The notes under the pieces were generated by a model. It was not told the DNA's origin and did no database searches. It saw only the letters and a list, made by a program, of their open reading frames with translations. Positions 1 through 52,734 of a stretch of DNA of 64,000 nt are shown here, piece after piece (the stretch's first letter is position 1; each line of letters begins with the position of its first letter). The stretch lies in assembly GCA_965153355.1 (NCBI GenBank), contig OZ231126.1, positions 3,162,001 to 3,226,000 on the forward strand, given 5' to 3'. Origin of the DNA: Flaccisagitta enflata. Its lineage: Eukaryota. The translations under genes and the position numbers were made by a program.

Positions 1-15
1 GTTGGGAAGCGGTCA

Positions 16-113
16 TGACGTAAAATACAGAACATGACCAATTGGCCAGAGAAAAGTCATGATTGAGAGAAAGATGGTCCAATGAGCGGAAACAGTTGTT
101 GAATAATTATAAA
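16..113 (+). promoter_or_regulatory. Possible Pol II promoter cluster (CRE-like, two CCAAT boxes, TATA) about 600 bp upstream of the NACHT ATG
   Basis: TGACGTAA at 16-23, CCAAT at 38 and 79, TATAAA at 108; motif order only. Confidence 0.25.
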
Positions 114-712
114 TCCCAGCACCATTAGGATGACTGTTCAGACAAGAAAAGAGAATGAGCACTATTGAAGACAGGATTTTACGTTTCGCTTAAGCATCAG
201 GCACATAAACAAGATACTCTCATACAGATGAGAATACGGTCATAATTGAGAACAAATGTGCGCAGCTTTCATTGACCACGGGAATGGGTGTGCTTGTATG
301 ACAAGCGGATCAATATTCCTCACCATACCCAAACTGTATAAGATGGAAGGGGGCCTCCATGACTAGTTAATACGAGCACCACTTCTGGTTTTCCATAAAA
401 CTGAATCTGAAAAACATTCAGTTTCCATCTAGCCCAAAAGCAAACTGCTTACCAAAAGTAGCAAATGAGTGTTACCTGTTTAACCAAAATTGTTATGTCA
501 CACAGATTTGATAAAACATTTGAACACGGTGAATAAAAAACGATGTTTTTGTGACGACAAACCTGATGGCATATTTTTGCTAATGCTGAAGACCCTGATA
601 GATTTTTCAGTCCACGGTTTGTGCTCTCGGGTCAGCATCAGTTTTGCTACTCGGTCTATGCGATTTTGTATCTAAGATTCCCTTTGCCCTGTAACGGTAA
701 GCCATATTCGAG

Positions 713-3434
713 ATGGAGCCGACAGATCCTAACTCCGCGGTGTTGATGCTGCCAGCGGATCACTTTCCATTTGGAGAAGACTGCAAACTATCGCGCTTGT
801 TCCAATCGGTCCTTTTCCATCATGATGTTCAACCCAAGGTTGTGGATATCTTGCAAGAGCAGGAAATCTTTTCACTTCAGGAGATACGTCTCGCCGACCC
901 GGATGGCAATCAGGAGAGCCAGAATCTTTTTCAGGAGATTGCAAATCAAGTTTCTTCTCCCGTGCGTTGTCTCAGATTGAAGAAAGCCTTCCGTCGAATG
1001 CTCCGTCCGGATCCATTGGCGGCCATCAATGACTTGCCGTCTGTCGCTGGCCATACTTCCTCTGCTGTGAATGCTATTACCACGGGCGCCACTGCCATCG
1101 GTGATGCCACTTCCACTAATTTGGCATCTGAGAGGGTGGCAAACAACATGAATGTTACGGTCAAGGAGTCAACTGTTCAAGAGCAGATTAATGCAAGCAC
1201 AGTCATTAAAAATGTAAATGTGACAGATAGCACCAAGGAACTTGGGAAAGATGATTTGAATGAATTAGAAAAAGAATTTCGAGAATATCTGAAAGAAAAC
1301 ATTAAAAATCATCATGGAGAAATCTCCATTCCGGCTTCCAAACAACGAGCAAAGTTGAGTGAAGCTGTTCTTAATTTGAAAGTAAAACTAAAGAGAGAAG
1401 CCGAGGAACCGCATTTTGTCCAAGAGACGAATGTATCAAACGAATCAGAATTCGCTCAAAATTCTGATTCTGATTCTGATTCTGATTATTTCGATTATTT
1501 TCATTTATTTTCTGATTCTGATTCTGATTCTGAGTCAGAGATGCAAGGTGCAAATTCTGAATCGGTGCCAGATACTGAAACCGACATGCCATATCAACTA
1601 TCAGCATACACACCAGATGAGGACCTTGATGAAGAGAGTTCTGATGATTTTCAGGAGCCAGTTGAGTTCATTGAAATATGTTCCACCATTGAAAGTGGTA
1701 ATAGGCTTGTGATAATAACAGCTCCCGGAGGAAGAGGAAAAACCACAATTGCCAAGAAGATAATGTGGTGTTGGGGAAATGATACCTACTTTCAACTCCA
1801 AGGCTTTTCCATGGTCATTTGGATCGATGCAAAGTACATTGACAATGATAGCAACCTCTTTGAAAATTTTGTGAAGCAATACAACTTCATCGAGGGAAAA
1901 TTTTCACCATCTAAATGGAAGAATTTACCCGAAGTGATCCGACAAATTCAAGAGCGAATCGTTTGGATGGTGGATGGCCTCGATGAAAGCGCAAATCATT
2001 CACTAATGGAAACATTCATCAAAAAAGAGATTGGCCGCTATGAGAAAAGTTCATTTATCTTTTTGACAAGAGAGGAGGGAAAAGAAATCCTGGGGCCAAT
2101 TGCTAATCGCGCGGTTGAATTTACTCTCTGCAATCTTGATGAAAACCTATGCCAGGAGTTCATCAAAGTGTACCCTTTCTCAGAGAACAAATTTGAGAAA
2201 ACAGAAGAATTATCATCTCAGTTACAAATCAATGTGGCGCTCAAGTCAATGTTTTCTGTCCCAATCAACGCTGCTATGATTTGCCGTCTGTTTGATGATA
2301 AGGGATTTGACGGTAATATCAAGGATGAATTGGACATCATTGGAAAAAATCTCGCAATGAACATCAAAGCCGCTCAGTTCAAGCAAATTGAAGGACAACT
2401 GGCTAAGGATTATGTCTCCGCACAGGAAAAAGAGCGTCTGGATTTGAAAAAACGAAAGCTACTTGAAACCCCGATTGATGAAGTGCAAAAGAAAAATAAG
2501 GAGACACTAATTAAGTTAGGACATGCAATTTACAAATGCAATGGCAACTCAGTGATAGGGTTTACCAATTTGAAGGAATGGATAATTGAGGAAGCATTAC
2601 AGGACCTTAATGTGACTGAGGAGGATAGGTCTCTCATATTAAGATTGGATATTTTTGAGAAAATACTTGACGGGGATCAAACGATGCTGCGTTTTTACCA
2701 TCGAAACATCCGCGAGTACCTGGTCAGTTTGTTCATTATCAGCGTCACAGACAGAGACTTGGTCCTACCAAGAGAAACAGGCTGCTCAAGCGCCATTAGA
2801 AAAATTGGAAAGATTGCCCTGTGTGGGATCATCAGTCATCGGTCCCTCCGTCACTACCCAGAAGGAAAACTGCAAGATGCTCATCTCGCCATTTTTAAAT
2901 GCGCAGCGGCGCAATTATTCAGTAGTTCAGACCTTGACAGCAAATTCGTGATAGGTCAGCTTTGCAAAATTGTCAAACATATTTTCGAAAGCTGCAAAGA
3001 GGCTGATCAATGGCGACTTTTGGAAATCATCTTTGAAGCGATTTATTATGCAACGCAAAGGCCAGAAATGAAGGATGATCTTCAGACTCTTTTGCTTTAT
3101 GTTATCAAAGTTGCCAAGAAGCAATCATTTCCAATCAATCCAAATTGGGCTGATGCCATCAACAAAGGCATCCTTGATGCTATTGTGACTCATGCCAAAG
3201 ATCTCGAAAACTATGGCTGCCAAAGCTGCATATCTCTGGCGGTATTCGGCAAACGGATGAGATCGCTGTTTCAGCGGGAAAGGACGTCAATGTACAACTG
3301 GCCTGAAAATCAACCAGTTGTTATCATTCCGTTTGTGGCAAAGACCGATGAATACATTGTCATAAATCTCCCTGGAGAACCTGGAGCCAAACATGTTACC
3401 CAAGGGTTCAAATCTTTATTTTTGAAAAAAAATG
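713..3434 (+). CDS. NACHT-domain NTPase (NLR/STAND-like), exon 1: SAM-like N-terminus, acidic Ser-Asp linker, NACHT and helical domains
   Basis: Walker A (ITAPGGRGKTT), Walker B (VWMVDGLDES), sensor-1-like FIFLTR, PINAAMIC and the winged-helix FYHRNIREYL motif. Donor AATG|GTATGC at 3434/3435 (phase 1). The 1108-aa ORF in the track reads through a 321-nt intron (3435-3755) that contains a T/C-rich tract and a HINE. Confidence 0.9.
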
Positions 3435-3552
3435 GTATGCTATATTATGCTCTTTCTCTCTTTTATTCTTTCTTTCTTTCATTCCTCTTTCTTTCTTTCT
3501 TTCTTTCTTTCTTTATTTCTTTCTTTCTTTCTCTCATTCTTTCTTTCTTTTT

Positions 3553-3696
3553 AGTTGCGGACACGCAACTCTATAAGAGCCTTCGTCCGTCCGTCCGTCG
3601 GTCCGTTGGTGTGCACGAGTCGAAAAGTGTGAAAACGCGCGTTTCCGCCCCTGCCCACCCATCCGCAACTGGTATAGCCTTGTATCCGGCCTTGTT
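3553..3696 (+). mobile_element. Short Helentron-type HINE/DINE-1-like element in intron 1 of the NACHT gene
   Basis: Starts after a T-run with palindrome AGTTGCGGACACGCAACT, then a (GTCC)n microsatellite and subterminal inverted copy TCCGCAACT. Ends ...GTATCCGGCCTTGTT. No TSD beyond flanking Ts. Confidence 0.75.
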
Positions 3697-3755
3697 ATTC
3701 TTCATATTCACAAGGACTTTCATTGTCAAATTTTATGTTTCTGTGTTTTTTTCAG

Positions 3756-3967
3756 ATACTGTTACCTCTCCAATACCTCTTCAATACCGTCAAATGGATT
3801 TTCAATCCAGATTTGGAGATGGATATGAAGTGATCGCCGAATGCATAGATGGAAACATTTTTGTCTGGGGCGGCATCAGTGCTATAGAGACTCATATGAC
3901 GCAGAGCCAGATCGGACGAGCAATTTCCAGTCACACCTTTCTAAGGGCTGTTGCGATTTTTTTTCAC
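3756..3967 (+). CDS. NACHT gene exon 2, carrying the first Kelch blade (GNIFVWGG); 3' boundary uncertain
   Basis: Acceptor TTTTTTTCAG|AT at 3755/3756 is in phase with exon 1 and translates DTVTSPIPLQY...ECIDGNIFVWGG. Possible donor CAC|GTATGT at 3967, but coding-like sequence may end near 3928. Confidence 0.7.
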
Positions 3968-6218
3968 GTATGTGATCATTTCATGAGTGTGGTCACATAT
4001 CATATTAATGCTATCTCATACCTCGATAGTCAAAAATGAGTTACAGGCTCGAGTAAAGTCGTTTTGTGGGTGAAAATCGCTAAGAAAATGGCCCTAAACG
4101 AAGGAAATTGAGTTCCCTAGCCTGTTTCATCAATGAAGATGTTGAAACAATCTGACAAAACCAACGCTTCCAGTATGAAAACAATGGAACGTATAGCTAA
4201 TCCTGGGTTTATTTTCACTACAAAAAAAATCTGGCGGCTTCCGGGGTGAAAGTGTGCGCATAAAAAGAATTATGAAGTGAAGATGTCATGGTGACCTTCA
4301 GAAATTGATTATTAGTACAATTTTTGTAATATTACTTAAAGAAGCTATCAAACAAGCAACGAGTGGGGATTTTTTAGTAGAATTAGTATGAATATGAGTC
4401 ATAGAGCATTGTTGCTCAGATTTGACCAATGGGGAGCTTTTTTTATATGCTAAATCGATTTTCAGAGTGAGGTTCTCACTCTTTTTCAAGATCTCGAAAA
4501 TATTATTTTCGTTTTTGAGAATTAAGAATAACAAAAATAAAGAAAAAACTAACAATTCTAAGAACATACCGGCCTTTGTATGATAAATAGCTAGCCCGGT
4601 ATGTTTTTGTTTTTTTCATTTTTTCATTTTTTATGCAAATTCTTAATTCTCAGTGAATTAACTATGTCATCTTTTTTCTTCTTTTTTTCTTCGGATTTTC
4701 CTTGAAATCAGTGAAGATTGCCAGACGAAAGACAAACACATCGGGTTCAACCTTAGTTGTAGGGGAGCAAGTAGGGACATTATCAGGGCTGGACATGGGT
4801 CATTTTCAAAAAAAAAGTACATTGGGCAGGGGCAGTAGCATGTTCTAGCAGAGGCAGAAATAAGCGGAATTTATTGATTTTACCAACCCCCTAAAGAAAT
4901 GTGTCAACAGAGCACAAACACAGAATTATAAACAACATGTACCCTTTGCAGATATGTATGAATGTATGAATGAATGATTGCATGAATGAATAAATGAATG
5001 AATGAATAAATGAATGAATGAATGAATGAATGAATAACTGAAAGACTGGCCGGATGAATGAATGAATGAATGATTGATTGGATCGATCAATCAACACAAG
5101 AAGGCACGAGAAGCAGGAGAGAACTTGATGGAGCGTGCGGGTGGGCACGTGCGTGCGTGCGGCTGGGCAGGGTTAGAGATAAGAGACTAACCAAAGTATT
5201 TGGGCAGGAGCGGTTACTCGAAACCTCCAATATTAGCTGAAAAAGCAAACGGGGATTGCTGCCCAAAAACCTATCGACCAACTGACCGACGGCGTTTTGA
5301 GCTCTGAGTTCACTGCGCCATTCCAAATTCCCAAATGATCCTCTTTCACTGCCCATCCGCACGTGACTTGGGTAGCCGTGTATCTGGCCTTGTTTTAAAT
5401 TCCAACAAACAAAAACTCTTCTAAGGCAGAGATTATTCTCTTAGCGGATTTTACTCCTGCTTAGTGCTTTTAGTTGAGTTAGTTGGTCAGTCTGTCGGTT
5501 GGTAACACGCGTTTTTCGCATTACCGCTCCAGGCCAAATGCTTGGTTACTTTTTTTAATCACTGTCCCTGCCCACCCCCACATTACTTTGGTAGCCATGT
5601 ATCCGACCTTTTTTTTGTTGGGGACATGCAACTCTACATTTTGCTGTGTCGGTCGGTAGGTAGTAGGTTGGTCTGTCCGTCACATTTCTGAATTGTGAGT
5701 GGTTTTGCATTACTGCCTATGCCCAACTGTCCGCTACTGTCTTGCCTCTTTGTCAACATTTTGGACAATGAGGTATACTCTTGATTAAATGAGTGAATGA
5801 AATTAGATGAATGAATTTTACAAAACCCTCGAACAAATCAATGCATGACTGTAAATATGATTAAATGAATGAATGAATGAATGAATGAATGAATGTATAA
5901 ATGAATGAATGAATGAATGAATGAATGAATGAATGAATGAATGAATGAATGAATGAATGAATGAATGATCAAAAGAACGACTTATATGATGACAAATATG
6001 AAAGAACTGGGAACATGTAATCATGTTATATACGATACGGTTTTCATGGCCAGAATAAGAAAATTATGACATGACGAAGGATACTATTGAAAAATGAATT
6101 CATAGGTGAACAAATTGAAAAAAAAATAAATGAATAAGAAAGTAAATAAGTGAATGAATAAATGAACAAACAAATAAATGAAATATGAATAAATGATACA
6201 AATGATATTTCATTGCTC

Positions 6219-6431
6219 TAAGGCCTTGCGGGTTTGACCGTGAGAAGGCCGAGGCTCGGTTTTCAGGCCAAACCCGAAATTCGGTTTTACCTTCAGACCC
6301 GACTTTGTTTTCAAAGATATTTTGCTTTTATATTATTCTTTCAATCTGACTCATCAAATCTTTTTTTTCTTCTCACCATTATGAAAATAGCATGCATGAA
6401 TGTGTAGGTTTATGTGTGTGTAAGTGTGTGT

Positions 6432-6476
<45 letters not shown>

Positions 6477-6532
6477 TATGTGTTTGTGTGTATGTATGTT
6501 TGTGTGTATGTATGTTTGTGTGTATGTATATA

Positions 6533-6607
<75 letters not shown>

Positions 6608-6961
6608 CAAGCACCGGCAGTCTCTGCCTCTGATGATGTTTCCCAAAGTGGATTCAAAAATTTAGGAAAACTTCTGTTCTGCATTTGCACTGTATGCTCC
6701 ATCATGAAATCGCAAGTTTTTGTATTATTCTCAGTGTTGTCTCAGTGTATTTGTGTCTGTATGTGTTTATGTATGCGTTTGTTTCTTTCCTTTTTATTCT
6801 CAATTTTTCTCCTATTTTTCATCTCTCTGGCCAATAACCAAACATCTTTTTGTTACTATATTTACTTTTTAAATAAACCCGTCATAAACCCGAAGAAAGG
6901 TTTTGAGGTATTCCGAACCCGAACCGAAACCGCGGGAAAAAACGCCATACGCAAGGCCTTA
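6219..6961. mobile_element. hAT-type non-autonomous element containing a (TG)n microsatellite
   Basis: TIR TAAGGCCTTGCG...CGCAAGGCCTTA, flanked by 8-bp TSD CATTGCTC (6211-6218 and 6962-6969). Confidence 0.85.
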
Positions 6962-7343
6962 CATTGCTCTGGAACAAAAAAAAAACAAATATAAAAGGTT
7001 TGCTTGGTTTGGATGAAAGAAAACCGTAAACTTGCATGTTTGAATGCTTTTCATGATTAAATGAGTGAATGAATTTATATAAAATAGACAAATATTACTC
7101 TAATGCCATATCACAACAATAGGGTAGCAAAAATCAATTGAAAAACAACTCATTGTGAATAAAATTAATGAATTTCTCCTAATAGTTTATTTTTCCTTAT
7201 TCAATTAGTTTTTTTGCAATAAATAGCTAAAAAATCAATATTTTGCATTGATTTTTTTGCAATGTGCTCAATATACAATGCCTAATGCTAACCAAAAGTT
7301 GAATAGCTTAAAATTAATAATCTATTTTTTGACCTATACGACT

Positions 7344-8282
7344 GGGACCTGCATGGCTGATCTTGCTCCGTGTCATATTTACAATGTCAGAGAGAAATCT
7401 TGGAAAACCATCCAAGCAACAGGTGACGTTCATCCCGGTTATAAATATGCCGCGAGTGTTGAGCTGAATCGTCTCATTTACCTATTTGGCGGTTGGGAAA
7501 GCTATTCTATTAACGGTTGGAAGGCTGTAAATTGCCTTTCGAGTCTCTCTGTCACTGGGGAATTCCGCCGAGTCCCCGTCAAGGATGACTCGTTGCCGTA
7601 TCCGCGGCATAAGTCAGTCGGTTGGACTTATAATGGCAATCTCTATTTCGCGTTTGGGGGATCTGGAGGGGACCAGCCAAAGCTTGAATTTATCAAAGGC
7701 GGGGCCTGGACCAGTGGAGATGGCGAAGGTTTTACGAATGAGGTTTTGAAATTTGATTTGAGAGAAAAGTCCTTTTCCTTTTTGGCGACAAAAGGACCTT
7801 CACCTGCACCTCGCGAGGATTGCGGATTCGCAAAGCTGCCGACGAAAGTTTTCATTCATGGTGGTGGCGATAGATATCGTTGTTTGCGTGACTTTTTTGT
7901 GTTAGACTTGCTATCCAATGAATGGACGGAATTGAAAGACTATGGTCTCCCTTCCGCCAAACGAGGGCAATCATTGATAGCATTAGGTCCGCGGCAAATC
8001 ATGCTTATGGGAGGATCTGAGTCGATTAATGGGAGATATCCGTCAAATGCAGTTAAGATCTACGATGTGGCTACTGAGACCTGGAAGGAAGATCAAACGC
8101 TGCCGGTTGAAGTCTGTGGCGAGCAAGGAGGATTGGCTTGGCATAATTCAGTCGCGGTTAAAGAAAATAAGCGGGTCACCAAAGTTATAACCTTTGGAGG
8201 CTATATCAGGGGATATAAATACAACACGGGCAAATACTCGTCCCATCTCCTAGAATTTGACGTAGAAGCCGCACGCCAGTAA
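7344..8282 (+). CDS. Kelch beta-propeller (KLHDC1/2-like), probably the terminal exon of the NACHT gene; 5' boundary uncertain
   Basis: Five Kelch GG motifs (IYLFGG, YFAFGG, VFIHGG, IMLMGG, VITFGG) plus W-containing blade ends. IYNVREKSWKTIQATGDVHP, SVGWTYNGNLYFAFGG and GPSPAPREDCG recall KLHDC2. Stop TAA at 8280-8282. Confidence 0.85.
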   Translation, partial: GTCMADLAPCHIYNVREKSWKTIQATGDVHPGYKYAASVELNRLIYLFGGWESYSINGWKAVNCLSSLSVTGEFRRVPVKDDSLPYPRHKSVGWTYNGNLYFAFGGSGGDQPKLEFIKGGAWTSGDGEGFTNEVLKFDLREKSFSFLATKGPSPAPREDCGFAKLPTKVFIHGGGDRYRCLRDFFVLDLLSNEWTELKDYGLPSAKRGQSLIALGPRQIMLMGGSESINGRYPSNAVKIYDVATETWKEDQTLPVEVCGEQGGLAWHNSVAVKENKRVTKVITFGGYIRGYKYNTGKYSSHLLEFDVEAARQ

Positions 8283-8285
8283 CTA

Positions 8286-9015
8286 CACCGTCTTTAAATC
8301 GAAATGGCAAATAGTAATCCTTCGTAACTCCAAAACTACTGGCCCAAAAGCCTTTAAATTTTCAGTGAATGTTGGTAACAACTGATCATTTTGTCATGCC
8401 AAAACTCAGATTTTATAAATAAATAGTTTGGGGTCTGTAAAACACTCGGAATATGCCTAATTTTTAGGGCTGAATCTTTTTTTCTTGCTTAATTTGAAAA
8501 GACTTGTCTTTATCAATAAACAGATGTCAAACAAATTAAGCTAGAACTCCGGGGTTGGTCTCAAACGATAGGAAATTTTTCAGAGATTACACTTTTACCA
8601 AAAAAATTGAAAAAAGTTGGAGATATTTTGAGGTTATCATTGGTTTTTGACACTCTTTGCTAAAATCCAGACTGTCAATCATTTGAAGATCATTTAAATC
8701 TTTCTAGATACAATAAATCAATGAAATTTTAAAGCAGAACTTACATTCATAATTTGTTCAAGCTTGCTTAATCAGGAAAAAAGCTATAAAAAAAACATTT
8801 TTCTAAGTATAACTGGGACAACTGGTTTTTTTCCATAAAATTGATAGTTTTTCAATAATTTAATGACCTCCAAACGATTCAGTATTAAAATCTAAGTTTG
8901 GACATGACAAAATGGTTAGCTGTTACCAACATTCACTGAAAATTTGAAGGCTTTTGAGCTAGTAGTTTTCTAGCTACAAAGGTTTACCATTTGCCATTTC
9001 GATTTAAAGACTGTG
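8286..9015. mobile_element. MITE with long TIRs and TA TSD (Tc1/mariner-like), inserted 3 bp after the Kelch stop codon
   Basis: CACCGTCTTTAAATCGAAATGGCAAA...TTTGCCATTTCGATTTAAAGACTGTG, TA on both sides; imperfect TIR extends over 100 bp. Confidence 0.85.
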
Positions 9016-9108
9016 TAAGTGATAGATAGTTTGAGCTCTGGATTTAGAGGCTATACTTTTTTCAAAAAGAAATCTTTGAAAACTACTAAACCACATCTTT
9101 CTGAAATA

Positions 9109-9697
9109 CAGGGTGTATCATGCCAAATTAGATATAAGAAAACGATGGCATTCTGCTTCTAAAAGTGCAAAAATAGATCTGAAAAAAGATTCAAAGAGCA
9201 TACAAGCTTCGGTTTTTTGTGTAAAAGTTCTATGAGTTTGGGTCAAATATTCTAGCCACAACATTAATTTGAAGTGAACTGAGCATTTTGAGGAGAAGCT
9301 TTTTGGATATGATTGTGATGCTGAAAGTTTTTCTTTGAGTTGCTCTCATTTCTAAACAGCTTGAGTCACATTTGCCAGATTGGTCTCAAATTAAAGAAAA
9401 TTTGATAAGCTTTAATTTGGGACCAATCTGGCATCTGTAACTTAAGTTGTTTAGAAATGAGAGCAATTCAAAAAAAAACTTTCAGAATCAAAATCATGTT
9501 CAAAGTGCTTCTCCTCTAAATGCTCAATTTATTTCAAATTGATATTGTGGCTACAATATTTAACCCAGACCCATGAAATTTTTACACAAAAAACCGGAGC
9601 TCATATGCTCTTTGAATCTTTTTTCAAAATTATTTTTGCATTTTTAGAAGCAGAATGCCAACGTTTTTTTATATCTAATTTGGCATGATACACCCTG
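9109..9697. mobile_element. Palindromic (foldback) MITE, TA TSD, Tc1/mariner-like
   Basis: CAGGGTGTATCATGCCAAATTAGATATAA...TTATATCTAATTTGGCATGATACACCCTG. The two arms are reverse complements up to a centre near 9400. Confidence 0.9.
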
Positions 9698-11120
9698 TAT
9701 AAAAAAATATCATTTTTAAAAAAAGTCTTTACACAATTCGACAATTCAAGAGGATGACCCAGTAAGACCGTCTTTAGATTGGATTGAAAGATTGCTAACC
9801 TTTATAGCTTGTAAAGTACTGTGTACCCGGCCTCGTTCCTCAGAATTGTTCCTCGAAAACACTAAAATGTACTTTTAAGGATTACAATTTTGTTTTCACT
9901 CTTTTCAAATTTTTTGTGAAAAAGCCGTTCAATTGATAAGCTGAACTTTATAGGTTTTTTAGGTGCCGCAAAGCACCTCTATAACTGGCTGTGTCCGTCT
10001 GTCTGTCGGTCGGTCTGTCGGTCGGTAACGCATTCGTTTGACGATCTATACGTCGCACCTATTGGCCTACTTGGCCTTGTTTTAGATAAAACACTTCTCA
10101 TTGAAATATTTGTAATATCTTGCTGCTTTACAAATGATAACCGCCAACGTGACTAAGGACAAGGCCAACACTTATAAGTCGCATGCGTGACATAGATAAC
10201 TCAGGACGACTTGAATTGACTTTTAAAGACTCAAGATGTCTTAAAATGACTCAAAAAGACATAAAATGACGTAAAGTGACATAATGACAAAGGTAATTGA
10301 CCTTATTGACTTAAGTGACTTAATATAACCTAAAATGACTGAAATTGACTTAGAATGAATTAGAATGACTTCAAATTACTCAGAATGAATAAAAATGACC
10401 TACCAATAAAGGCAGTAAACCCCCGTAGGAAAAAAGTCGTAAATGCTAAGAACAAGGTCATTAAACCTAAGTCGCATGCGTCGGCACTTTCAAAACAAGG
10501 CCGGATACACGGCAAATACCAGTCGTGGACGGGTGGGCAGAGGCGGAAATGCGTGTTTTCCCACTTTTTGACTCGAGCGTGACAGACCGACCGACCAACC
10601 GACCAACCAACCAACCGACGGACGGACGGACGGACAGAGCCTCTTATAGCGTCGCTAGTCCGCGACTAAAAAGTCAGGCAGACAGACAGACTAAGATTTT
10701 TTTTTCAAAAAGACATTTGGAATGACCATTTACTCCACAAAGTTTCTTTTCTACCATTCAGTGACATAAAAACGCTTTAAAAAAAGTTTTGTGACAAATC
10801 TTCAGTCTGTCCGATCGTTTCTAGTTGAAAAGTGTGAACACGCGCTGAGATGGTTTGAGTACGCGTGAGAGTGTGCGTGTGTGTGGGGGGGATGGGCGCA
10901 GATATAACCCCGGGTTACTTGTTCTTAACATGCCTGGTTTGCTCGCTCTCCATAGTGGCACACTTCCCCAATTCGATGGCTTCAGTCCTTTTGAATATGT
11001 TCTAATCGGGTAGGTCAAGATCCTACAGTTGTTTTGATCAGCATCTTGGCATAATATTACATCAATGCCATCATATCGCTCGTTTGACCATTGCTAGGGA
11101 GCGTATCCCTGTGTGACAAC

Positions 11121-19390: not shown

Positions 19391-22759
<3,369 letters not shown>

Positions 22760-26061: not shown

Positions 26062-27483
26062 ACGGTCGGGGTCCCCCATTTCAAATATCTCAATTTCAAA
26101 GGTTTTGAAAAATAAACAAAGCCAGATGCACAGCCCATACCAGTTGCGGACGGGTGGGCAGGCACTGTTTAACTTGTGTTCATGGCTGGACCAACAGACA
26201 AACCGACATACAAAACCTCTTATAGAGTTGCGTGTCCGCATCTAAAAATGTACCAATTTTTTCACAAAGTGGTCCTAAAAAGGGTGTAGAATCAGAATAT
26301 CATGTTAATTTTGGTCTTACCTTGGCCAAAAAAATTAGAAACGGTTTTTAGTGGTAAAAACAACTATTTTTACTATATTCAATATTTTTTTTTAGAAACA
26401 TGTTACCGTTATAGTCCATTAGCTACTATGAAAAAAATGTGTTTTTACCCTAATCAGGTCAGGTCTCAAAAATTTGAACTAATCTCATTTTACAGGAGAT
26501 AAATAGATAAAAGGATACTGAAAATGTATACTTGAGAACAGTTTTTAGTCGCGTGCTACGCGACTACACCTCGCTATGTTGGTCCGTTGGTTGGTCGGTC
26601 GGTCAGTCCCCTTTTTGGGCAGCGGCCCCGAAGGGGCCGATGACCTATGCTTTCACACAGGGGAATTTTCTCCTCCTCCTCCTCCAGCGTACCCCCCCCC
26701 CTCAAGGCCCAAATCCTGGCTTCGAGCCTCAAATCCCAGCCTGGAGGCTCAAATCCCAGCCTGGAGGCTCAAATCCCAGCCTGGAGGCTCCAATTCCAGC
26801 CTGGAGGCTCCAATTCCAGCCTGGAGGCTCCAATTCCAGCCTTGAGGCTCAAATCCCAGCCTCAAGGCTCAAATACTAGTCTGAAGGCCCTAATTCTAGT
26901 CTGAAGGCCCTAATTCTAGCCTCGAGGCTCAAATCTCAGCCTCGAGGCTCAAATCTCAGCCTCAAGGCTCAAATCTCAGCCTCGAGGCCCAAATCCCAGC
27001 CTTTCAAATACATACTCAAAAAAGTGTACCCTAATCAGGTCAGGCTCTTGAACTAATCTCATTTTACAGGAGATAAATAGATAAAAGGATACTGAAAATG
27101 TATACTTGAGAACAGTTTTTAGTCGCATGCTACGCGACTACACCTCGCTATGTTGGTCCGTTGGTTGGTCGGTCGCTGACCATCTAACGCTTTTGCGACT
27201 ATTATTTTTTTGGCGTTTTTGAACTGCTGCCCAGATGCCCTAGTGACCTTCTCCAGCACTGCTCCTGCCCACCTGCATGCAACTAGAGTAGCCGTGTATC
27301 CAGCCTTGTTATAATAAAAATGGCCATTTTTAACACAAATAACCGTTTCTAATTTTTTTGGCTCAGGTTTGGTAAAAATGAATATGATATTTTGATTTTA
27401 CACCTTTTTTAAGACTTCTCTGTAAAAATTGGAATCGGTACATTTTTTTTTCTTAGATATTTTCAATGGGGGACTCTGACCGT
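26062..27483. mobile_element. MITE with nested HINE insertions, a 21-bp minisatellite and an internal ~150-bp duplication
   Basis: TIR ACGGTCGGGGTCCCCCATT / AATGGGGGACTCTGACCGT; (GGCTCAAATCCCAGCCTGGA)n at about 26715-27000. Confidence 0.7.
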
Positions 27484-35685: not shown

Positions 35686-36293
35686 TTTTGGCTTGTCTCC
35701 ATTCTGTGTCCAGTAGAAAATAGCAAGCAAAACAAATCAAAAATGTCTTATTATAATTTATATGATATTATAGGTTTTCATTGACCGTTATCAATCTCAC
35801 AGTATACTCAAAAAATTTCAACTCATTACTCAAATGATAAGTTATCAAAAAATGGTATAAAAATCAAATTTTCCCCTCCTCGATTTTTTGCTTTTTAGCC
35901 GCGTGCACGCGACTCTACAACCTGCTTTGTCCGTCGGTCGGTTGGTTGGTCGGTTGGTCGATCACACTTTACTTTTTTATGATCTTATTTCTTTGACATC
36001 ACTGCTCCTGCCCAAATGGTCTGGTGACCTCAAATATGGCCCCTGCCCACCCGCACGCGAATGTAGTTTCCCGAATTGAGACGAGGAAGAGTGAAATGCT
36101 TTGACAGTTTCTGAATTCAGTCGCGTCATGTTGCTAAGTTACCTAGTGAACATAAACAGTTACGTGAAAACTGACCGTACTGAGAGGACGTAGTCGGAAT
36201 AATTTTCTTTCCGCATTTCAATTTTCTTCTCTAATTCTCTCGATCTCTCGATCAATTCAAATTTTCTCTCGTTGTGAATATTTCGGGCAGAAA

Positions 36294-37239
36294 ATGCCAC
36301 GGGATCGTTTTTACGACAGCGACGATTCAGAAACCGAAGCCTACGCCCAGTATGGGAGCAGTCGCAGCGGCAGCAGCTTTTCTCGGAGTCGCTCCCGCAG
36401 TCGCTCAAGAAGTCCGGCTGGGCCTCGGCGCCGCGTTTCGCGCTCTCGCGAGCAATCAGGGGAGCGCGAACGCGTGCATGGGGGTCGCGCGCGTGGCGGT
36501 CAGTCACGCGAGCGTCCCAGATCTGTTGTTTTGCCCGCATCATCTGGTATGCCGCCATTGGCTAATTTACCGCCTTCCGATCTTCGTTCTGAAATCGAAT
36601 CTTCGTTGGCCCAACGAGTCACCGAGGCCGTCACGTCTAACCTCAAGACGCAGTTGGTGGAGATTCTGTCAGAGAGAGATGGGCGATCATCGGACGTCGC
36701 CAAAGAAATGGAGTCCCTGAAAGCTGCTCAGCAACATACTTCGCTGCTGTCGGAAGCTGCGGAGTTTACAAGCGAATCGGCTCAGAGGCAGTTTATCGCT
36801 TTTGCTAAAGTGAAGTCGGGCATCTCCAACGCTCGTCGTCTTTTCCAGTCCGGCGACGCCACAGGGGCGGATGCTGCTTTGAAAGAGGTGGATTCCATAA
36901 CCGACTTCCGCCTCGACATGATTCGTCGCGCCGATTCTCAACCCGGTGGCTGGGCTGCAGCCAATGTTTATGAGAAAAAGATGGCAGGTCAATTAGACAG
37001 TAAGAAGGATCGAATCTGGAGAGCCGCCGTTGAAGAGTCAAATCAAACGCGCAAAGATAAGAAGAAGCCCTCAGGTTCTCAGAGGTCAAATCAGTCCTTC
37101 CAAGGTAAAAAGATACTACATACAAATATTTAATCTTATTCCTGCTATTCGGCAGTCGTGAATTTCCACTTGTCCTTTCAAGAATTTGTTTTAACGGTTC
37201 TTTCTTTCAACTTTTGTCTGTTGACGCTCGATTTACAAT

Positions 37240-38167: not shown

Positions 38168-40473
38168 ATTTTTCCTTGCTCAAAGTTTATAAGGCTGTAA
38201 GTATTTGTAAGTATAGAGGGAAGGCAGTATTGTATCTCTGTAATATTAATTATTTTCTTTTCCAGGTGAGCAAAATTGAAGTTTTTGCCTATGTTGGGCC
38301 TTTCTTCAGCTGGCTCAAAACGTGCCTCTTTTGACCATTTAGTTTTGTGCCAATTTGCATCAATAGACCCTTCAAAAGGAAGATAGTTGACAATGCTCTA
38401 AGCTACTTGCCTACTTGCTGTTTCCGTATCAAAAATAATCGATAATTCTATACTTCTATGAATTTCATTCTTTTAACAGTTTCAGGAACAACAGAGCCTC
38501 GTCTCTTGCCATTGATCACCAAGCTTAAATTACAAGCATTGGCAGATGCAAAATTGCTTGCTCTCATTCCTACAGGATTCTCAATACAGAGAGTTACAAT
38601 TTGTTCGAGCTGGCCTTGCTAATTGACAATTGGTAGACTTGTGTATTTCCTTCATAAAGGGTTCAGTTTGTATATTCACATACTCCACATTCGACAGGAT
38701 ACTGCTCATTTGACGTCTTAGTGACAATACTCTAATAATTGTTTTATTTCAGCTTCAAAAATTAACTTGTTTTCTTTGCAGGAGTGGATTTAATAATCAT
38801 TAAATAAAATTCAGCTCAATTTTTTAATTCTTTGCCATCACCTTCTTTGCCTCCCACCCTCCTATCCAGGCTGAAGTCCAGTTTCCACGAAATTCCGCCT
38901 CATTCGACATTCGTCAATCCAGTTGTCATCGCCATGTTTCGTCCCACTTCCGGTGACGACTCACTTCGTTCATTTTGAGTCCCAGGATCAATTTCCCGTT
39001 CTAGTCCAATCTACTATAGTCGCATTCTTCATACGGCAAGAAGTCAATTTAGCATACGGCAAGAAGTCAATCTAAATTGCTCTCATTCCAAAGCGACATG
39101 TGATCAAAATGATTTTGTCTTGAAATTCATTGTTCCTAATTGATTTTTCAATCTTGACATGACATGACATGATTCGAGCTCAGTCTCTGTCCTCTCTCCG
39201 GCCAATACACGCTTCCCTGTCATTTCACGAATTCCGTGTCTCGTATTTGGGAAAGGGAAGTTTTCCGGAGGAAAACTTCAGTAGCCGTGTATCCGGCCTT
39301 GTTTTCTTTTAAAACTGAACATTATGATATTCATTTTTTTTTTTAACCTCATTCTTCTTGAACAATAAGCATTTTTTCTTTTGTCATTCAATGGACAACT
39401 AATTGAGGGACATTCCCCTCCATTTTCATGTCATTGGGTTGATCCTAAGCAGAGAAATGAAATTTTTCTTGGAGCGTATCAATTCGCGAACACCCCCAAA
39501 TTTGTTCCATACGCATACCTAACGCTTAACATATGCCACTATGGTGTGAAAATGACACATTTTATATAAAATCTGACCACACCACGTGAAAGCGTGAAAT
39601 TTAACTCCCAGGCGTTCAGTCACAATGAAATTTTATATTTTGTTGGTCTTGAAAGTGTTGCAGAATTGATGCGCTCATCGAACAATCATCATAGTTATTT
39701 TCTTCTTTTTGGAAGTCAAGATTTTGCGGACTTTGAAGGAAAAAAATACAATTTATCCAATTTACAAAAATGTCCATATCTCATGAACCCTTTGAGCTAT
39801 ACACACGATCTTCTGCAGGAAAACAGATTTTACCAAAAGAGATCAGGAGAAAAAATTTGGTATTCTGAAGATGAGTCAAACTAGCCCAACCAGCCCAACC
39901 AACCTACCAGATGAAAAATGAAAAAGTGGCACAACTTTCGAATGAGTCTGCCGATTTGGCTGAAATTTTGCATGAAAGTTGTTGAAGAGTATCTACATTA
40001 CTAGTTTGAGCTTATAGCTTGGCCGAACAAGAGGCACAAGTGGCCCAACTGTTTGCATATCTAGCCCTGCTAGGCTAAGGTTGGTTGGTTTTGGTTGGGC
40101 AGGTCCAGTCAAAAAGGCTTACATGTGCAAGTTTTGTAACTGCCTGCTGGTGGGTTCCTATTCGGGCAGGGTCCCCCGTTGAAAATTCGTGGATGTTTGG
40201 GCAGGGGCAGTAATGCAAACAAGGCCGGATACACGGCCACCAGTTGCGGACGGGTGGGCAGGGGCGTTTTCCCACTTTTCAACTCGAGCGTGACGGACGG
40301 ACGGACGGACCAACGGACCAACGGACCGACAAAGCCTCTTACAGAGTTGCGTGTCCGCCACCAAAAAGTGCTCAGGGATATTGCAAGATGTAAAGTCGCG
40401 TATCCGCGTATAAAATGTTAAGGATGGACCAACCAACCGACATGGCTAAGTGCAGGGTCGCTTGTCTGCGACT

Positions 40474-50207: not shown

Positions 50208-52734
<2,527 letters not shown>

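Follow-up and report, generated by a model that had tools for sequence, protein, structure and literature searches.

Organization of the locus

We analyzed a 64,000-nucleotide (nt) stretch of the Flaccisagitta enflata genome (GenBank assembly GCA_965153355.1, contig OZ231126.1, positions 3,162,001 to 3,226,000), which is referred to below as the window and supplies all coordinates. The locus under study spans positions 713-8282 on the forward strand. It contains two long coding pieces, one for a NACHT NTPase and one consisting of a Kelch open reading frame (ORF), and a small candidate exon lies between them. The NACHT and Kelch pieces are on the same strand and in the right order, and all three pieces are free of stop codons over about 1290 codons. 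The domains, their order, and their integrity were directly established, as was the occurrence of the same fusion within one ORF elsewhere. We consider it probable (about 0.58) that the pieces form one gene of a metazoan STAND/NLR-like family in which a KLHDC2-type six-bladed Kelch propeller replaces the usual leucine-rich repeats (LRRs).

Positions 701-4039 form a single open frame on the forward strand, whose first Met codon is at 713. Putative exon 1 opens with the N-terminal domain and a linker; the NACHT NTPase comes next, followed by helical domains and a C-terminal module specific to the family. Joined as in Table 1, the three putative exons comprise 3990 nt, corresponding to 1329 codons and a stop codon; P0023, the sole full homologue that was found, has 1332 amino acids (aa). 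Within the window, tblastn with seven queries found no second copy of the locus.

A homologue with NACHT and Kelch in one ORF

P0023, from a public run assembly, is encoded by one ORF on a single 4273-nt contig, and this contig looks like a transcript because the ORF nearly fills it. Pfam identified NACHT and Kelch_KLHDC2 (E 8.4e-52) in P0023. Residues 409-976 of P0023 align to residues 303-906 of the window protein (BLASTP, E 2e-34), with the alignment ending at the exon 1 border, and residues 1064-1331 align to the Kelch ORF with 31% identity (E 1e-31). The window Kelch scored 114 bits against P0023, that is, higher than against human KLHDC2 (67.7 bits). In P0023, blade 1 follows directly after the NACHT module and aligns to blade 1 of KLHDC2, which is also the best solved match of P0023 (E 9e-25, blade 1 included). 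The two proteins thus share a NACHT module, a linker, and a six-bladed KLHDC2-like Kelch in the same order, but they are only 23-31% identical, and the N-terminal 340 residues of P0023 are different and lack the transposon-like domain described below.

The NACHT-then-Kelch architecture proposed in a preliminary description of the locus is supported by these data, since P0023 is collinear with both ORFs and the best sites of intron 1 are in phase. The further proposal of a lineage-specific capture is not supported, because the same fusion occurs in so divergent a homologue. The sharing of the fusion at 23-31% identity implies that it is old.

Table 1. Predicted features of the NACHT-Kelch locus and the basis of each assignment
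Feature	Position	Strand	Description and basis
Putative exon 1	713-3434	+	907 codons + 1 base; ORF/translation, Pfam NACHT, donor TG^GTATGC at 3434/3435
N-terminal domain, ~112 residues	713-1048	+	Common to many small transposon-ORF1-like proteins
NACHT NTPase core	1703-2089	+	Pfam PF05729 over residues 331-459, E 4.5e-8
Walker A APGGRGKTT	1721-1747	+	Intact
Walker B IVWMVDGLDES	1958-1990	+	Intact
Putative intron 1	3435-3755	+	321 bases: (TTTC)n tract and one dispersed-repeat copy (3547-3704)
Putative exon 2	3756-3967	+	Linker and candidate strands A-B of Kelch blade 1; 3' end uncertain
Putative intron 2	3968-7226	+	3.3 kb of microsatellites and dispersed repeats; 180 self-matches
Putative exon 3 (Kelch ORF)	7227-8282	+	Stop codon 8280-8282; Pfam, KLHDC2 and P0023 matches
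Possible polyadenylation signal	8418-8423	+	First AATAAA past the stop codon; pattern scan

The NACHT module

The NACHT domain named in the preliminary description was confirmed: the Pfam score of 33.5 bits exceeds the curated cut-off of 26.7 bits, and both Walker motifs agree with the general patterns GxxxxGK[ST] (Walker A) and hhhhDGxDE (Walker B). The NTPase is divergent. Pfam scans of the window protein found no CARD, PYD, DEATH, or TIR domain and no match to the NOD2_WH and NLRC4_HD2 models. Across eight family members, conservation reaches a K-K-x-G motif (3422-3434) and then stops, with complete divergence of the tails; this shared stop fits a common exon border. Within the family-specific C-terminal module, an H-x(n)-C-x2-C element (3188-3229) and a later K-H pair (3386-3394), preceding a W-P-[ED] motif, are invariant in all eight aligned members, and this Cys/His set may bind zinc.

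When the 896-residue NACHT ORF served as the query of an exhaustive HMMER search, 242 proteins had E<=0.001; 79 of them reached E<=1e-10, and 12 reached E<=1e-30. Of the longer or closer NACHT homologues, 30 were scanned with Pfam. NACHT was accompanied by LRR families in 13 of these 30, which are the more distant matches. The close homologues P0004 (42% identity), P0007, P0013, and P0029 showed NACHT only and are on short contigs. In a word-indexed protein search, none of 7997 candidates matched the NACHT part at E<=0.001, and none of 371 candidates matched the Kelch part.

The Kelch ORF

The Kelch ORF matches Pfam Kelch_KLHDC2_KLHL20_DRC7 (PF24681) at E 1.4e-43 over model positions 28-221. 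The five Kelch GG motifs attributed to this ORF at the outset were all located (YLFGG, FAFGG, FIHGG, MLMGG, and ITFGG). Among solved structures, human KLHDC2 is the best relative (E 9.1e-18, ORF residues 50-347), and KLHDC10 (E 5.6e-10) and KLHDC3 (E 9.5e-5) are weaker. The alignment spans KLHDC2 residues 69-361, indicating that blade 1 from strand C onward and blades 2-6 are present, whereas for blade 1 strands A and B are not encoded in the ORF. Recognizable Kelch homology begins near 7359 (DLAPCHIYNV), and the composition of 7227-7316 looks noncoding by codon log-odds. Two metagenome loci retrieved by a scan with the Kelch alignment, L001 and L002, were rejected as relatives; they have G+C contents of 71% and 51%, respectively, and contain generic Kelch only, without NACHT.

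Candidate exon 2

Closure of the propeller would need the missing half-blade from somewhere, and the preliminary description had assigned one of the six Kelch GG motifs, IFVWGG, to exon 2. The motif is indeed present at 3857-3874, within IAECIDGNIFVWGG (3833-3874), but the identity of the blade is only weakly supported, since generic Kelch profiles were not significant. Exon 2 is open only in the NACHT-compatible frame, with no stop codons as opposed to five and one in the other two frames, and is the only WGG-bearing open piece between the NACHT and Kelch ORFs. Its codon usage is coding-like over about 3776-3925 only, whereas 3926-3967 is noncoding-like. In a Smith-Waterman comparison with the blade 1 region of P0023, exon 2 scored 38, against 21.5 +/- 4.2 for shuffled sequences; this score was reached by 20 of 5000 shuffles and by none of 131 stop-free noncoding windows (maximum, 31). 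Apart from exon 2, no Kelch-like piece was evident in the gap by a half-blade hidden Markov model (HMM), which was derived from the remaining 11 blades of the window protein and of P0023. These observations weakly support the assignment of exon 2 to strands A-B of Kelch blade 1.

Splice sites and transcript evidence

From the splice signals and reading frames we infer that the three pieces are joined at this locus. Intron 1 has three GT and three AG candidates, and the best pair is in phase and gives a stop-free join. The best donor, TG^GTATGC (^ marks the cut; exon end 3434), lies exactly at K-K-x-G, and the best acceptor is TTTTTTTCAG^ (exon start 3756). By codon log-odds, the repeat copy (about 3551-3685) scores positive, with values up to 5.0, and the flanks on either side (3386-3550 and 3656-3790) score negative. 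No AATAAA or ATTAAA occurs between 3300 and 4536, and a NACHT transcript should therefore run through exon 2.

Donor candidates of exon 2 are 3929, 3949, and 3967, with CAC^GTATGT at 3967/3968 being the strongest. For intron 2, the donor at 3967 has the same phase (0) as the T-rich acceptor that precedes 7227 (AATAG^), and the in-frame canonical options for joining exons 2 and 3 are the donors 3949 or 3967 with the acceptors 7227 or 7299. The interval 7307-7389 contains no AG. As an acceptor, 7307 was rejected because it requires a phase 2 donor and none exists. The donors 3878 or 3929 (phase 1) combined with the acceptor at 7393 give an in-frame join but delete the conserved strand HIYNV, and this combination was likewise discarded.

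RNA was compared with window positions 1-9400 by using two runs, X2 (polyA, about 6 in 100 read) and X1 (metatranscriptome contigs). X2 provided five reads, all partly aligned, with depth at 2199-2512, 3455-3768, and 4397-4710 and with no junction. X1 provided 293 pieces on repeats or low-complexity sequence, and the one joint seen in it, from 3675 to 5375, connects two copies of a repeat.

Alternative interpretations

Several results weigh against a single intact gene. Canonical joins of exons 2 and 3 that keep HIYNV insert 50-80 noncoding-like residues into the B-C loop of blade 1; the 1329-codon model places about 76 residues there, compared with about 12-20 in KLHDC2 and P0023. The open stretch 7227-7352 (42 codons) is at most mildly unusual, since 3.3% of shuffles and 7-16% of local noncoding 42-codon windows are likewise stop-free. 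For exon 2, Pfam gave just Kelch_2 at E 0.2, the half-blade HMM gave 3.7 bits (E 1.1, rank 3 of 185 gap pieces), and neither BLASTP against P0023 nor phmmer against PDB returned anything significant. The fusion was seen in 1 of the 30 scanned NACHT homologues and in 1 of 15 Kelch-side matches (word-indexed search with P0023 residues 940-1332), the latter being P0023 itself, and for most close homologues the sequence is a short contig that breaks off soon after the NACHT exon. Finally, X1 and X2 contained no exon-exon joints and no reads on unique exon sequence, a result that is uninformative as to both splicing and expression.

The locus could instead descend from a fused NACHT-Kelch gene and have been damaged since, as the lack of a clean join between exons 2 and 3 would suggest: coding-like usage ends at the donor 3929, which is of phase 1, and the nearest acceptor ahead of the homologous part, at 7307, needs phase 2. 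According to this explanation, an originally more compact gene was disrupted by repeats inserted at 3435-3755 and, over about 3.3 kb, at 3968-7226, so that blade 1 is no longer spliced correctly, the product is NACHT with a short Kelch remnant tail (stop codon 4037-4039) or nothing stable, and the Kelch ORF is an open relic. Both gaps are full of dispersed repeats and microsatellites, and the absence of RNA on the exons in the two runs would also be expected. In-phase canonical joins do exist, however (3967^7227 and 3967^7299), and neither the Kelch ORF (309 codons) nor the NACHT exon (907 codons) contains a stop codon or a frameshift. The inserted repeats have already diverged from their other copies (67-95% identity), and the openness of the ORFs beside them argues for continued selection. 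With about 1290 codons stop-free next to such diverged repeats, an intact locus with a long loop insert is favored, and damage appears rather unlikely.

Two independent neighbors, a NACHT-only gene and a KLHDC-like gene starting at ATG 3794 (MDFQ...), whose proximity is due to chance or functional pairing, would be a still less probable arrangement. Many NACHT homologues show no Kelch, a Met codon is located 13 residues into exon 2 (3794), and another is located right before the homologous Kelch part (7353). Against such a separation, the NACHT frame is stop-free to 4039 and, with no polyadenylation signal before 4536, runs in frame through the supposed first Kelch exon, immediately before which there is a strong in-phase acceptor. 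Moreover, P0023 unites both parts in one ORF, and the window Kelch is closer to P0023 than to KLHDC2.

Ligand pocket and proposed mechanism

The C-terminal helical part of KLHDC2 docks to Elongin B/C. The window Kelch ORF ends at residue 351, four residues past the propeller alignment, indicating that the post-propeller part of KLHDC2 is absent and with it the region that recruits Elongin B/C-CUL2. According to the excerpts available from two publications (PMC11377542 and PMC12169847), the pocket of KLHDC2 comprises R236, R241, S269, Y163, W191, W270, K147, and R189, and the numbering in our HMMER alignment reproduces all eight of these residue types. Judged by this alignment alone, one of the eight excerpted positions is identical in the window protein (K147) and one is conservatively changed (W191 to F); the others are replaced (Y163 to S, R189 to E, R236 to G, R241 to C, S269 to R, and W270 to G). 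Of the same set, P0023 keeps only R236 and R241. The suggestion that the propeller senses KLHDC2-type degrons thus finds no support in the pocket residues so listed, although three other arginines are present in the loop that follows FIHGG. Because that pocket is not kept, the ligand of the window copy is probably not a Gly-ended C terminus of the KLHDC2 kind.

For the ligand and signaling we likewise infer a scheme, by analogy with NLRs and Apaf-1. In the resting state the propeller would keep the NTPase inactive. Ligand binding to the top face of the propeller would release it, and nucleotide exchange would then permit oligomerization, which would cluster the N-terminal parts and start a downstream signal. 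A broader proposal, which we put forward tentatively and regard as doubtful, is that the locus represents an old, undescribed animal NLR-like subfamily with a KLHDC2-derived sensor that may read peptide ends or short linear motifs, the signaling end here having been replaced by a domesticated ORF1-like domain. Reading of peptide ends or short motifs is possible because P0023 keeps both carboxylate-binding arginines. If the proposal is true, a single receptor would combine the substrate reader of an E3 ligase with a STAND switch and a module of transposon origin.

The N-terminal domain

The first ~95 residues had been described as SAM-like, but Pfam matched no SAM family to residues 1-163 up to E 10, and none of 31 aligned relatives matched one. 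The domain had no Pfam match at all, and its profile found nothing beyond low-complexity matches among solved structures. Among the matches listed, 90 of 150 homologues carry only this domain, as small stand-alone proteins of about 75-500 aa in which the domain precedes a Ser/Ala-rich stretch, an acidic stretch, and a brief conserved terminus. The core of the domain, L-P..Q.P-F-G..C....Q...FH...PDG...AFRR, is present in the window protein, with P19, C24, Q31, H36, and P63 being invariant (alignment A1), and identity to 29 small transposon-ORF1-like proteins is 29-48%. One small-protein member has a GDSL esterase and another has a CCHC-like tail (read by eye), features that recall the ORF1 proteins of non-LTR retrotransposons. 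These two members suggest that the N-terminal domain is of the retrotransposon ORF1 type, which hints at domain capture from mobile elements.

Five paralogues (P0004, P0013, P0018, P0058, and P0141) begin with a Met equivalent to about residue 146 of the window protein, and among the matches listed none spans both the N-terminal domain and NACHT. The domain is thus an addition to the usual N terminus of the family. P0005 (168 aa, on a 637-nt contig) is about 90-91% identical to residues 1-155, then diverges, and ends 13 residues later; it may represent another allele, a paralogue, or an alternative splice form of a similar gene. Its match over residues 1-155 shows that in at least one further sequence the domain is joined to the NLR-type N-terminal motif region.

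This motif region is rich in N, T, V, and Q (1058-1228, residues 116-172), contains the short runs NVTV, TVxG, and HNxY, and is joined to the NACHT NTPase by an acidic Ser/Asp linker. The same region was observed at or near the N termini of P0004, P0013, P0018, P0141, P0023, and P0011. It resembles the short amyloid or RHIM-like signaling motifs of other NLR systems; no match to Pfam RHIM was seen in it. Two paralogues start with MGN, which resembles a myristoylation signal.

Comparison with known receptors

The familiar sensors of NACHT switches are LRR, WD40, TPR, and ankyrin repeats. Animal NLRs of the NOD1/NOD2/NLRC4 type share with the window protein a NACHT domain with Walker A and B motifs and a tripartite layout of N-terminal part, NTPase, and C-terminal repeat sensor, which here is putatively spliced on; they differ in having LRRs, whereas the window protein has none and would carry a Kelch propeller in their place. 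In NACHT-WD40 proteins of the NWD1/TEP1 type and in the NB-ARC-WD40 protein Apaf-1, a STAND NTPase is followed by a closed beta-propeller that is the presumed ligand sensor. These proteins would be the nearest functional analogy, although their propellers are of the WD40 type rather than the Kelch type (PF24681) and the sensors are without sequence relation. With human KLHDC2, the C-end degron receptor of CRL2 (PDB 6DO3 and 8SGE, among others), the window Kelch shares blades 1C-6, a long insert in blade 3, and K147, whereas the remaining pocket residues, as given in the excerpts cited above, are changed and the C-terminal helical part is absent.

A full-text literature search found no description of a NACHT-Kelch protein, and the same search showed no occurrence of the word Kelch in two animal NLR surveys (PMC3879445 and PMC11508797) or in a method paper on the revision of domain models (PMC8662601). 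The layout is apparently undescribed so far. Because NLR/STAND receptors are modular, their sensor repertoire shows which kinds of ligand innate immunity can read, and a KLHDC2-type Kelch would add a sensor whose relatives read protein C termini. A Kelch-NACHT receptor would furthermore offer a compact, structurally tractable model of propeller autoinhibition. The value of the finding is limited by the odd domain mixes for which invertebrate NLR-like families are already known and by the still putative splicing and expression of the locus.

Repeats and neighboring genes

The window has a G+C content of about 40%, with many microsatellites and dispersed repeats. For the dispersed repeat of about 155 bp at 3547-3704, blastn gave 14 matches, which represent about 13 further sites in the window, and its copies are 67-82% identical; copies lie near 10494-10673, 40218-40368, 26106-26248, and 51420-51472, among other sites, and parts recur in intron 2. 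A tandem 4-base repeat family occurs at 4950-5100 and 5830-5980 in intron 2 and again at 21145-21228, 15 kb downstream, with up to 95% identity, and a long (TG)n tract is located at 6400-6650.

On the reverse strand, the start of an open frame at 17562-18086 matches the Pfam XK-related protein model (E 3.3e-7, model positions 3-43), and this frame is probably the first coding exon of a neighboring animal gene. A 321-codon open frame on the forward strand (36168-37133) has an Arg/Ser-rich start and no Pfam match and lies where the G+C content of the window is highest (0.49).

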